From a virus: a stretch of DNA of 64,000 bases. Position 1 is the stretch's first letter, and each line of letters opens with the position of its first letter. Under the pieces are notes generated by a model. The model searched no databases, was not told the origin of the DNA, and was given only the letters and a program-made list of their open reading frames with translations. The DNA lies in IMG/VR virus record IMGVR_UViG_3300029362_000001, positions 1 through 64,000 of that record; one strand, given 5' to 3'. Below, piece by piece: positions 1 to 5,828 of this stretch. A program made the translations under genes and the position numbers.

Positions 1-84
1 TCCCTACCAACAAAATTCAACTCCCTACCAACAAAATTCAACTCCCTACCAACAAAATTCAACTCCCTACCAACAAAATTCAAT
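1..84. repeat. Tandem direct repeat, 21-bp unit tccctaccaacaaaattcaac x4 (last copy ends in t); the array is cut by the window edge and may extend upstream
   Basis: Four contiguous, essentially identical 21-mers at 1-21, 22-42, 43-63 and 64-84. Confidence 0.9.
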
Positions 85-160
85 AGATAAGCGTTTTAAA
101 ACAGTGTTCTGTAGATCATTTCCACAAAATTCAATATGATAAGGGTTTAAAACAGCATTA
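70..160. repeat. Second-order imperfect direct repeat, two copies of a ~37-bp unit (CCAACAAAATTCAAT-AGATAAGCGTTTTAAAACAG and TCCACAAAATTCAAT-ATGATAAGGGTTTAAAACAG)
   Basis: Read directly; the unit shares the caaaattcaa core with the 21-mer array. Candidate iteron, origin or terminal-repeat region. Confidence 0.7.
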
Positions 161-244
161 TATAGGTTCCTTCCAACAGATTAAGGGTTGAGGACTGCAT
201 TATGTGAGTATTTTTTTTTAAGCGGGATGTTTAACAATTAAAAT

Positions 245-621: not shown

Positions 622-702
622 ATGAAAAAGGCATTTAAGATATTTTCTATTATGTTTGTCATAGAAATAGTGCTGATAGCTATTTTAGATGTTATGGCGT
701 AA
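622..702 (+). CDS. Small hydrophobic peptide, 26 aa (MKKAFKIFSIMFVIEIVLIAILDVMA)
   Basis: Strong SD (aaaaaggaggag) 8-10 nt upstream of the ATG; a charged N-terminus followed by one TM-like helix. Below the 60-aa cutoff, so absent from the ORF track. Confidence 0.35.
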   Translation: MKKAFKIFSIMFVIEIVLIAILDVMA

Positions 703-781
703 GTGAGAAAAATTTCTTCATTAATTTTCTTATGCTTTAGACAGAATGCTCCCATCTGCGAAGATCGGAGCATTTGCTTTA

Positions 782-826
782 TGGGATTCATGGTGCAGCA
801 AGTCGGTTCGATTCCGGCGATCTCAC
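782..826 (+). ncRNA. tRNA-like element A: canonical T-arm (GTCGG-TTCGATT-CCGGC) closed by a 7-bp acceptor-like helix (tgggatt/gatctca, 2 G-U) plus discriminator C. A full cloverleaf could not be built
   Basis: The GGTTCGATTCC T-arm consensus is intergenic. The track ORF 703..1254 starts with GTG and the real ATG is at 850. A paralogous module lies at 2015-2075, and a 7-bp hairpin (ATGCTCC/GGAGCAT) lies just upstream at about 746-773. Confidence 0.35.
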
Positions 827-849
827 ACAACATTAAAATAGGGAAGAAC

Positions 850-1254
850 ATGTTAAAAGAAGAATTTGAAGAACTGATTAAAAGGGAGGTAAACGAAAAT
901 CAGTATAAAAACATAGAAACGGCATACGAGGCTTTGCCGGAGTATATGGATAAGATGTATTTAGCAAGTGCTATTTCAAATGATATTGGGAAAGCTATTA
1001 ATGTCTTATCGTTTTTAGGATCGCATATAAGCGAGTTAATGGGTTCGATAATAATCGAAAGGCAAAAGGTGGAATCATGTGCCTATGATTTAATAAACAA
1101 ATCGCATGAGGAGGATGACTTGAAAGCAAGAGAGATTGCCGTGCGATTAATAGGAGAGAGGGAAACAGTGGCATACACAGTAAAAGAAGGGCTGCCATTG
1201 TGGGAACAAGATAAAAAGTTTATAATAGAATTAATAAAGGAGGATAGAAAATGA
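850..1254 (+). CDS. Hypothetical protein (134 aa)
   Basis: The internal ATG (M50 of track ORF 703..1254) is the likely true start; the upstream part is a tRNA-like intergenic region. Confidence 0.55.
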   Translation: MLKEEFEELIKREVNENQYKNIETAYEALPEYMDKMYLASAISNDIGKAINVLSFLGSHISELMGSIIIERQKVESCAYDLINKSHEEDDLKAREIAVRLIGERETVAYTVKEGLPLWEQDKKFIIELIKEDRK

Positions 1255-1592
1255 AAGACGGTATTGTATTGCATCCAGAGCATGGGTTGAATCCATCCAT
1301 AGAACTATGCATAGTATGCGGTGAAGAGATGGGGATTGCTTTATTAGGGAATAACATCAAAGGGCAGGCGCCGCATCATATATGCACGGGAGAAATATGT
1401 GACAATTGCAAAAAGATAATAGATGACGGAGGTTGTTTTATTATCGAAGTTGAGGATGGATCAGATCAAAAGAATCCGTATCGTACAGGGAGATATTGCG
1501 CGATAAAGAAAGAAGCAGCAAAGAAAATACTTGGACAGGAGCATAGTATTGTGTACATGGAAAAGTCTGCGTACAGTCAAATAATACCATAA
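1251..1592 (+). CDS. Hypothetical zinc-ribbon protein (CxxC ... CxxC)
   Basis: ATGA overlap with the upstream gene; the Cys pairs CIVCG and CDNCKK. Confidence 0.55.
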   Translation: MKDGIVLHPEHGLNPSIELCIVCGEEMGIALLGNNIKGQAPHHICTGEICDNCKKIIDDGGCFIIEVEDGSDQKNPYRTGRYCAIKKEAAKKILGQEHSIVYMEKSAYSQIIP

Positions 1593-1654
1593 AAATAAAG
1601 AAAGATATATTTACAAAAGAAGAGCGATTATTCATATGGAAAAAGGTATATGAG

Positions 1655-1921
1655 ATGATTGATAGGTTAGAGGATGGGGAATACATATGTGTTGCGTTAA
1701 GAAATGTAGTGTTTATGTATTTCAAAACACATAAAAATATCTATGAGTTTCGTTCAGACGAAATGGTGAGAATATATTTCCCGGAATTGGAGGAGAAGAT
1801 AAGTATGGCCACAGAACCAGAGGAAACAAGAACGTTTTATGGGTGGTTTGGTTGTCTTAATCCAGAAACGAAGGAGGTAAGGCTGAATATTGTGAAAGAT
1901 ATTATAAAAGAATTAGAATAG
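1655..1921 (+). CDS. Hypothetical protein (88 aa)
   Basis: ORF in the + gene block. Confidence 0.45.
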   Translation: MIDRLEDGEYICVALRNVVFMYFKTHKNIYEFRSDEMVRIYFPELEEKISMATEPEETRTFYGWFGCLNPETKEVRLNIVKDIIKELE

Positions 1922-2014
1922 TATTTTTGTTAATCTATTTTATTCATCAAATTAAGTTTTGGGTTTTGGCATGTCGGTTCGTGAGGATAGGCATGCCTAT
2001 TTCTGCATCATAGA

Positions 2015-2075
2015 GGGGATGACGCGGCGTGCCGGTGCGTATGTGCCGGTCCTGGTTCGATTCTGGGCATCTCAC
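2015..2075 (+). ncRNA. tRNA-like element B: T-arm (CCTGG-TTCGATT-CTGGG) plus acceptor-like helix (ggggatg/catctca) plus C. Paralogue of element A with the same ATCTCACA tail
   Basis: The GGTTCGATTC motif lies in the 170-bp intergenic region between the ORFs ending at 1921 and starting at 2097. An upstream GGCATG...CATGCC hairpin lies at about 1968-1997. Confidence 0.35.
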
Positions 2076-2096
2076 AAACAATAAAACAAAAAAGTT

Positions 2097-5770: not shown

Positions 5771-5791
5771 TTTTCCATGCGAGTTAGTTGC

Positions 5792-5828
5792 CGGCACTGG
5801 TCTGCGAAGATAGGTGCCGTTTTTTTAT
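5792..5828 (+). terminator. Rho-independent terminator: stem CGGCAC/GTGCCG (6 bp), about 15-nt loop, then an 8-T run
   Basis: Lies immediately after the stop at 5770 and before the SD plus ATG at 5848. Confidence 0.6.

Follow-up and report, generated by a model that had tools for sequence, protein, structure and literature searches.

Truncated tRNA-like elements between genes of an epsilon crAss-like gut phage as candidate RNA processing signals

We describe two short intergenic elements, A (positions 782 to 826) and B (positions 2015 to 2075), in a 64,000-nucleotide (nt) stretch of viral DNA that represents positions 1 to 64,000 of IMG/VR record IMGVR_UViG_3300029362_000001 and is referred to below, at its full length, as the window. 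Both are very probably sense-strand RNA structures resembling the top half of a transfer RNA (tRNA), in which a T-arm adjoins an acceptor-like helix; they are without an anticodon arm and unable to decode. Together with a third paralog, C, found in related genomes, they look, from sequence comparison, like a three-member family descended from phage tRNA genes of which only the top half is left, and this family is unannotated and absent from Rfam. By analogy with the t-elements of plant mitochondria, we suggest, tentatively but as the likeliest reading, that A and B are tRNA-derived processing signals cut by ribonuclease P (RNase P) and ribonuclease Z (RNase Z).

Two tRNA-like top halves in successive intergenic regions

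The window comes from an epsilon crAss-like phage of the human gut, and its first 6 kb are 94.5% identical to crAssE-Sib (OR575929, where it is named csAssE-Sib), whose 151-kb genome likewise belongs to an epsilon crAss-like phage of the human gut. In epsilon crAss-like gut phages, a long module of genes on one strand has A, B, and C in intergenic regions that follow one another. The paper on crAssE-Sib lists six tRNAs and does not mention the intergenic regions of A and B.

The initial annotation had placed the two elements at 782-826 and 2015-2075 with a common T-arm and tail, which the sequence bears out: the pattern GGTTCGATTC-N5-ATCTCACA occurs twice in the window, at 805-827 and 2054-2076 on the + strand. 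Each element has a T-arm with a 5-base-pair (bp) stem, a 7-nt UUCRANY loop, and the G53-C61 pair, and in each the acceptor-like helix abuts the T-stem without a gap (Table 1). The 7-bp acceptor-like helix that had been proposed for both is complete in A, with 7/7 pairs (two of them G-U), whereas in B only 6/7 pairs close because position 1:72 is G.A; C has six contiguous pairs. The GGTTCRANYCC motif is complete in A, and its last base is U in B (GGTTCGATTCT), giving a G.U pair in the T-stem. The linker of A occupies the place of the tRNA D arm, anticodon arm, and variable region. The proposed folds are within 0.3 to 1.7 kcal/mol of the minimum free energy overall (0.6 for A and 1.7 for B). In the minimum-free-energy fold, A is closed by another helix (GUG.AG with CU.CAC), which we set aside because several natural variants break it.

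Table 1. Coordinates of elements A and B, their parts, their intergenic surroundings, and paralog C
Feature	Position	Strand	Basis or detail
AT-rich segment, stop codon to hairpin 1	702-743	+	pi = 0.007; 1/42 sites segregating, p = 0.007
Upstream hairpin 1	745-774	+	fold: 8 bp, 1x1 internal loop, 4 bp, GCGA tetraloop, then UUGCUUUA
Element A, tRNA-like top half	782-826	+	sequence, pattern match, covariance model, fold
A, 5' helix strand UGGGAUU	782-788	+	
A, linker CAUGGUGCAGCAA	789-801	+	13 nt
A, T-arm GUCGG-UUCGAUU-CCGGC	802-818	+	loop UUCGAUU at 807-813
A, 3' helix strand GAUCUCA	819-825	+	
A, C826	826	+	discriminator position
A, tail and leader (ACAACAUUAAAAUAGGGAAGAAC)	827-849	+	A/C-rich, unstructured; reaches ATG at 850
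AT-rich segment, stop codon to hairpin 2	1922-1967	+	pi = 0.004; 1/46 sites segregating, p = 0.004
Upstream hairpin 2	1968-1997	+	fold and intergenic alignment: 8 bp, 1x1 internal loop, 4 bp, GUGA loop, then UAUUUCUGC
Element B, tRNA-like top half with inserted hairpin	2015-2075	+	sequence; model R1, 93.9 bits
B, 5' strand GGGGAUG	2015-2021	+	2015 unpaired
B, linker ACGCGGCGU	2022-2030	+	9 nt
B, extra 8-bp hairpin GCCGGUGC-GUAU-GUGCCGGU	2031-2050	+	GUAU loop
B, T-arm CCUGG-UUCGAUU-CUGGG	2051-2067	+	
B, 3' strand CAUCUCA	2068-2074	+	
B, C2075	2075	+	
B, tail and leader (AAACAAUAAAACAAAAAAGUU)	2076-2096	+	A-rich; reaches ATG at 2097
Paralog C	crAssE-Sib OR575929 ~575-505; L001 ~7.86 kb; L002; ~90 other loci	- in crAssE-Sib	T-arm, closing helix, inner hairpin

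The likeness of A to B reaches beyond the T-arm, as their alignment spans 33 nt at 79% identity and extends into the tail, the first ~12 nt of which are common to both. A covariance model built from type-B homologs only matches A with 21.7 bits (E = 0.0025 in 253 kb) and nothing further in the window. The joint pattern GGTTCGATTCNNNNNATCTCACA gives two matches against 0.03 expected, and 0/100 shuffles reach two; the 10-mer GGTTCGATTC by itself is unremarkable across the 64 kb, with three matches at no more than one mismatch against 3.7 expected.

Relatives of the two elements are numerous and closely similar. At least 119 IMG/VR contigs contain the GGTTCGATTC-N5-ATCTCACA pattern, and the neighboring protein is encoded in ~170, nearly all of which carry both A and B on the gene strand with 0.85 to 1.25 kb between them. 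Because a distant-mode blastn search of the GenBank phages returned crAssE-Sib as its sole match, these phages hold no divergent relatives for comparison, and retrieval anchored on the neighboring protein yielded solely relatives at 93 to 100% identity. Farther homologs of that protein, in BS162P1, cr271_1, and one unverified phage, have no such element nearby. A scan of viral contigs with T-loop variants (GGTTCRAVTC..ATCTCAC) returned stemless chance matches and one known locus, and nothing else.

Pairing, covariation, and selection

Several observations speak for an RNA structure formed on the sense strand. Full pairing is found on the + strand only; on the - strand, the T-stem of A retains 4/5 pairs, that of B retains 3/5, and the B hairpin retains 5/8, the complementary strand losing one to three pairs per helix because of G-U pairs. 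The T-stems differ among the paralogs and are paired in all three (GUCGG/CCGGC in A, CCUGG/CUGGG in B, and UCCGG/CCGGA in C), with the first pair being G-C, C-G, and U-A, respectively. The closing helices are likewise paired throughout (GGGAUU/GAUCUC, GGGAUG/CAUCUC, and GGUUGU/GCAACC) and include three double-sided changes. Within C, 99.7% of alignment cells are paired, three pairs are changed on both sides, 0/500 shuffles reach the covariation score, and slid controls collapse to 38 to 53% paired; these compensatory changes keep the T-stem and the inner hairpin paired. Pairing is also high in A (97.6% of cells, 14 distinct variants) and in B (98.3% of cells, 28 variants), where every change in B passes through G-U. 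We claim covariation support for C and for the comparison between paralogs only. The T-loop varies solely at positions 59/60 (GAUU, GAGU, GAGC, and GAAU), as in real tRNAs.

A first test of selection used loci fetched with the motif itself and was thus biased, so it was repeated on 35 distinct sequences retrieved via the neighboring protein, with third codon positions, of which 58/334 (17%) are segregating, as the reference. The T-loops and closing-helix strands are under purifying selection, with 0/42 sites segregating (p = 0.001); across the whole acceptor and T-arm core, the count is 4/62 (p = 0.035). The linkers and the B hairpin vary near the level of synonymous sites. Therefore, it is the half recognized by tRNA-processing enzymes that is constrained, and the rest is not.

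The B region is non-coding as well. In crAssE-Sib, a 52-amino-acid (aa) hypothetical protein is annotated across B (coding sequence WOZ57404.1; L120, 2541-2699). Natural B homologs carry a 14-nt deletion of the hairpin and a 1-nt difference (GGG/GGGG), and since both break the frame, this coding sequence is spurious.

A third paralog and the origin of the family

In related genomes, the third paralog shares the strand of A and lies ~1.8 kb upstream of it, just beyond the reach of the window. It is tRNA-sized (~63 to 70 nt); its closing helix has 6 bp, it contains an inner hairpin, and an A-rich leader connects it to the following ATG. It reads ..UGGUUGU AGCAU AAA AUUC-GUACA-GGAU AGGA AUGC GUG UCCGG-UUCGAUU-CCGGA GCAACC U C U AAAUUAUAAACAAUA..AUG in crAssE-Sib, where the 3' end of an annotated coding sequence overlaps it. 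Aligned to the phage's own tRNAs, C resembles tRNA-Cys (z = 6.0; the other five tRNAs score no more than 2.4), so the family looks like duplicated phage tRNA genes reduced to the top half. The phage's true tRNAs have no encoded CCA either.

Such an origin raises the question of whether the elements still function at all. They might instead be decaying tRNA pseudogenes or recombination linkers that have no RNA function and persist at module boundaries, where homologous recombination shuffles genes. The resemblance of C to tRNA-Cys fits this proposal, as do a further truncated tRNA-like remnant by tRNA-Tyr and tRNA-Lys in crAssE-Sib, gene swaps immediately behind the tails, the existence of an A/B chimera and of a deletion between direct repeats, and an overall element diversity close to that of synonymous sites. 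However, the 0/42 segregating sites in the T-loops and helix strands and the compensatory changes that maintain the T-stem and inner hairpin of C do not agree with it, and the half relevant to RNase P and RNase Z has been kept in three independently diverged copies. We regard loss of function as improbable.

The elements also mark mosaic boundaries, with junctions right after the tails (loci L001-L232). The 134-aa gene directly after the tail of A (850-1254 in the window) is present in some genomes and not in others, and in other genomes a different gene stands directly 3' of ..CATTAAAA, which belongs to the A tail; two alternative genes occur downstream of B. Contig L096 is the A/B chimera, joined in the T-loop, and in L038, L071, and similar contigs the B hairpin has been lost between GCCGGT direct repeats.

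tRNA, tmRNA, and host tRNA comparisons

Neither element is a tRNA in the ordinary sense. ARAGORN called no tRNA or transfer-messenger RNA (tmRNA) gene in the whole 64-kb window, and Rfam at gathering thresholds returned no match in it; at E <= 10, Rfam still found no tRNA and gave a single 17-nt local match, to the T-arm of A (posterior probability, 1.0). The absence of a standard cloverleaf that the initial annotation had reported is thus confirmed, as a D arm and an anticodon arm are both missing, with 13 nt of linker in A and 9 nt plus a tetraloop hairpin in B in their place. Because neither has a 7-nt anticodon loop, A and B are not decoding tRNAs, and the suggestion that they are unusual (intron-containing or type II) tRNAs finds no support given the missing D arm and the negative ARAGORN and Rfam results. 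The silence of the tRNA tools counts solely against the elements being true tRNAs. A tmRNA is equally poorly matched, since 45 to 61 nt leave no room for a tag reading frame and pseudoknots, and the ARAGORN and Rfam tmRNA models are negative in the window; both tools do detect the tmRNA of the crAss-like phage phi14:2.

A further suggestion, that the elements are attP-like remnants of host tRNA 3' ends, was examined by searching 185,579 prokaryotic species, each represented by a single genome, for an exact match to 18 specified bases. Ten matches were found, none of them in a tRNA gene and one of them in a mis-binned fragment of this phage. A host tRNA remnant thus finds no support from these exact matches; the tRNA that C resembles is the phage's own tRNA-Cys. 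Among the options raised at the outset, the one that we favor is the top-half minihelix as a candidate substrate of RNase P or of the enzyme that adds CCA, for which the stacked T-arm, the G-U pairs that close on the sense strand only, the purifying selection, and the compensatory changes in C all argue.

Intergenic context and a possible role in transcript processing

A lies in an intergenic region of 148 nt (702-849) and B in one of 175 nt (1922-2096), and both regions have a common order: stop codon, conserved AT-rich segment, hairpin with a GNGA loop and a U-rich tail, spacer of 7 to 17 nt, tRNA-like element, A-rich leader of ~22 nt, and ATG. The additional stable hairpins that the initial annotation had noted are indeed there (Table 1). 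Hairpin 2 repeats the architecture of hairpin 1 with a wholly different stem sequence, and the loop sequence of hairpin 1, TCTGCGAAGAT, is found again at 5801-5811, within a canonical terminator that has a U7 tail. The two are members of a terminator-like hairpin family. In the sister hairpin at 5791-5828, the U7 tail is followed by a Shine-Dalgarno sequence and an ATG within 20 nt; therefore, such hairpins must be read through. The leader of B has no Shine-Dalgarno sequence and segregates at 1/22 sites. The AT-rich segments are the most conserved intergenic parts, with 2/88 sites segregating against 17% at third codon positions; the first, at 702-743, is possibly a promoter, an operator, or an RNA, and no sigma-70 or Bacteroidetes-type promoter consensus could be assigned in these segments by eye and with a simple scan.

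For RNase P, RNase Z, and the CCA-adding enzyme, an acceptor helix with a T-arm stacked on it suffices as a minimal substrate. We tentatively propose, by analogy and as the likeliest mechanism, that a multi-gene transcript would run through the leaky hairpin terminator, that host RNase P might cut 5' of the minihelix (at about 781/782 and at 2014-2016), and that an RNase Z-type activity might cut past the discriminator position (at about 826 and 2075). The upstream mRNA would then be left with a protective 3' hairpin and the downstream mRNA would begin at a defined, unstructured A-rich leader, with the excised 45- to 61-nt piece possibly receiving CCA as a by-product. In plant mitochondria, t-elements with the GGTTCRANYCC motif set mRNA ends via RNase P and RNase Z (PMC1920247), and they receive CCA and are not aminoacylated (bioRxiv 10.1101/2024.09.09.612099).

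A number of points weigh against processing, or against the structural evidence on which it builds. We infer the cuts by RNase P and RNase Z solely from known substrate rules, and by those rules the helices of B and C, at 6 bp with 1:72 unpaired, fall one pair under the 12-bp stack of RNase P. Structure alone is unconvincing because a loose descriptor (T-arm plus at least 6/7 closing pairs) gives two matches in the window against 1.0 expected (P[>=2] = 0.3). Within A and within B there is no double-sided covariation, the changes being one-sided via G-U and the shuffle controls not significant; mean diversity inside the elements (pi, 0.035 to 0.054) is not below that of third codon positions; and all homologs are close relatives. 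If the terminator-like hairpins upstream were efficient, little transcript would pass through to the elements. Processing also leaves the strongest conservation, that of the AT-rich segments, unaccounted for, and a pure processing signal does not explain why A and B both retain GGGAU/AUCUC with a G-U pair at 3:70.

The same layout would suit a promoter acting at the DNA level, composed of the T-loop sequence, 17 nt, and a -10-like hexamer (TAAAAT/TAAAAC), or a hairpin promoter in the style of phage N4 for the crAss virion RNA polymerase. The order of terminator-like hairpin, element, ~22 nt, and ATG is that expected of a promoter position, A, B, and C have equal spacing between the T-loop and the -10-like hexamer, an extended -10 box occupies the equivalent place in a third intergenic region, and single-stranded templates are preferred by the crAss virion RNA polymerase, whose promoters are not yet defined. 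Promoters of N4-type virion RNA polymerases are hairpins on the template strand with a 5- to 7-bp stem and a 3-nt loop. In the present elements, however, the stems pair on the non-template strand only (3-4/5 pairs on the template strand), and the loop has 7 nt and tRNA-type variability. A promoter would have no use for compensatory changes in the 5' strand of the T-stem or for a closing helix that lies 13 to 39 nt upstream, there is no sigma-70 -35 consensus, and a simple scan calls no promoter at either site, so that we consider a promoter quite improbable.

That third intergenic region (IGR3; 2537-2645) has an equal layout, with the extended -10 box TGTATAAT at 2620-2627 in place of the tRNA-like element. 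Its hairpin (2584-2611) is of the same build, with a stem, a small internal loop, a short stem, a GNGA loop, and a U-rich tail, and its AT-rich segment (2537-2582) has TTTTT(A)TGTTAAT..TTCAT in common with intergenic region 2 (IGR2).

Possible roles in trans

Apart from processing, the elements could be tRNA mimics acting in trans, that is, stable CCA-tailed minihelices that bind or soak up a host factor recognizing the acceptor and T-arm, with their position at gene boundaries being secondary. AlaRS, EF-Tu, and SmpB would be candidate targets of a decoy resembling the tRNA-like domain (TLD) of tmRNA, as would a defense toxin that targets tRNA ends. We think a role in trans unlikely, although not negligibly so, given that most A and B copies carry G2-C71, G3.U70, and G4-C69, the acceptor signature of tRNA-Ala and tmRNA, and that the B acceptor (GGGGAUG/CAUCUC) equals that of flavobacterial tmRNA apart from position 72. 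The succession of acceptor, GG-containing linker, optional hairpin, and T-arm is also the layout of the tmRNA TLD, with helix 2 truncated in B. Moreover, an early intergenic region of phi14:2, a crAss-like relative, contains a full tmRNA, and crAssE-Sib encodes a nucleotidyltransferase of the CCA-adding type, Ro60, and a polynucleotide kinase.

Against a trans-acting mimic, G3:U70 is replaced in seven type-B copies (by A3-U70 with G4.U69) and in the L014 lineage (by G3-C70), and it is absent from C. It is replaced as well in a few single-copy variants (L008 and L060), and we rejected it as a universal feature. Position 73, which is A in tRNA-Ala and tmRNA, is C here, both elements lack a terminator of their own, the Rfam tmRNA models match the T-arm only, and tblastn finds no homolog of the nucleotidyltransferase, Ro60, or polynucleotide kinase in the window. 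In its most specific form, in which the excised elements would be the smallest natural trans-acting tRNA mimics, early CCA-tailed, TLD-only mini-tmRNAs or decoys that titrate SmpB, EF-Tu, or AlaRS or absorb a toxin of tRNA 3' ends, the proposal seems distinctly unlikely. If it were true, one of the phage groups most common in the human gut would possess, in these elements, an RNA-based means of takeover or anti-defense that is kin in kind to the full tmRNA of phi14:2.

The tmRNA of this Cellulophaga phage (NC_021806, L124; 4031-4502, +) has the ARAGORN tag GSSVQKLAMVA*, an Rfam score of 46.0 bits against a gathering threshold of 47 (E = 2.3e-16), the acceptor GGGGUCG/CGACUCC, G3:U70, and A73, and it lies within a long early intergenic region. 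A very abundant, stable early non-coding RNA with no assigned function has been reported from that region (Drobysheva et al., bioRxiv 10.1101/2020.03.07.982082). The RNA-handling proteins of crAssE-Sib (L121-L123) comprise a 220-aa nucleotidyltransferase of the CCA-adding/poly(A)-polymerase type, a polynucleotide kinase/3'-phosphatase, an NrnA-like phosphodiesterase, and Ro60, and none has a homolog in the 64-kb window by tblastn.

Highly improbable is a last alternative, in which A and B are Y-RNA-like partners (YrlA type) of a phage Ro60 (Rsr). It draws on the Ro60-related protein of crAssE-Sib and on the fact that YrlA mimics tRNA with a T-arm and is in some cases cut by RNase P and CCA-tailed (PMC4201824). 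However, rsr is ~75 kb off in crAssE-Sib (73 to 74.7 kb, with the elements at ~148 to 150 kb) and has no homolog in the window by tblastn. A regular expression for the motif GNCGAAN0-1G (PMC4201824) matches neither strand of either intergenic region, there is no Ro-binding terminal stem, and Rfam finds nothing in the window.

Elsewhere in crAssE-Sib (L122 22571-22648, +; ~72.6 kb in the record), another T-arm (ACAGG-UUCGAGU-CCUGU) with a closing helix, called by no tool, immediately precedes tRNA-Tyr, tRNA-Lys, and the Ro60-related gene. A truncated tRNA would be one reading of it, and a candidate Y-RNA-like partner another. The three loci there are each preceded by a repeated leader motif of ~25 nt, (A/G)TGGTGA(T/G)G..TACTTCG. 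At the start of the window (1-174), a 21-nt unit (TCCCTACCAACAAAATTCAAC) occurs four times in tandem (1-83), and next come two 51-nt repeats that have diverged (73-174). Iterons, an origin, a packaging signal, and a promoter array are all conceivable here; the genome end predicted by PhageTerm in crAssE-Sib is ~600 nt past the window start.

Comparison with known systems

Plant-mitochondrial t-elements, which are non-decoding tRNA-derived structures at mRNA ends, were reportedly described by Hanic-Joyce in 1990. On sequence, A and B have the marks of this class, being tRNA-derived (through the likeness of C to tRNA-Cys) with the GGTTCRANYCC motif and a non-canonical cloverleaf. Like t-elements (Forner et al. 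2007, PMC1920247), they have a tRNA-gene origin, a GGTTCRANYCC T-arm, and an acceptor-like helix, and they stand on the sense strand with no encoded CCA. Their location at gene boundaries is observed, and the action that we propose, with RNase P at the 5' end and RNase Z at the 3' end, is assigned by analogy. Unlike t-elements, they reside in a Bacteroidales bacteriophage rather than an organelle, have only 45 to 61 nt with no D or anticodon arms, and are paired with an upstream GNRA-capped hairpin, and their cleavage is predicted.

In phage T7, RNase III hairpins between early genes separate cistrons and leave stable ends. The phage elements would similarly be structured intergenic RNAs that recruit a host endonuclease to an early multi-gene transcript, with the difference that T7 uses a long double-stranded hairpin and RNase III, whereas here it would be a tRNA mimic. 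A parallel can also be drawn with mascRNA/MALAT1, where a tRNA-like fold inside a longer transcript is cut by RNase P to make the upstream 3' end, nearby structure protects that end, and the small piece receives CCA, as is proposed here; that system differs in that it is eukaryotic, that its fold is a complete cloverleaf-like one, and that the protection comes from a triple helix instead of a hairpin. The tmRNA TLD likewise joins an acceptor and a T-arm without an anticodon arm, has a GG-containing single-stranded linker for the D arm, has helix 2 exiting where the B hairpin stands, and has G3:U70 with G2-C71 and G4-C69, as do A and B. Unlike it, A and B have no mRNA-like frame or pseudoknots, have C73 rather than A, leave 1:72 unpaired in B, and have lost G3:U70 in some copies, as C has altogether. 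YrlA (PMC4201824), which is sometimes phage encoded, is also a non-decoding tRNA mimic with a canonical T-arm, but A and B differ from it in strand topology and in lacking a Ro60-binding stem or motif, adjacency to rsr, and a D arm.

Significance

In current annotation, the regions of A and B are empty or, in crAssE-Sib, are covered at B by a spurious hypothetical protein. The epsilon crAss-like phages that carry them are abundant in the human gut and uncultured, and their gene expression is hardly charted. A small covariance model could annotate the elements in hundreds of gut virome contigs. The case illustrates how duplicated phage tRNA genes can shrink to the half that processing enzymes recognize. 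If punctuation by RNase P and RNase Z proves true, A and B would offer concrete cleavage sites for mapping early transcripts and would give bacteriophages an equivalent of the t-elements and tRNA punctuation of organelles.

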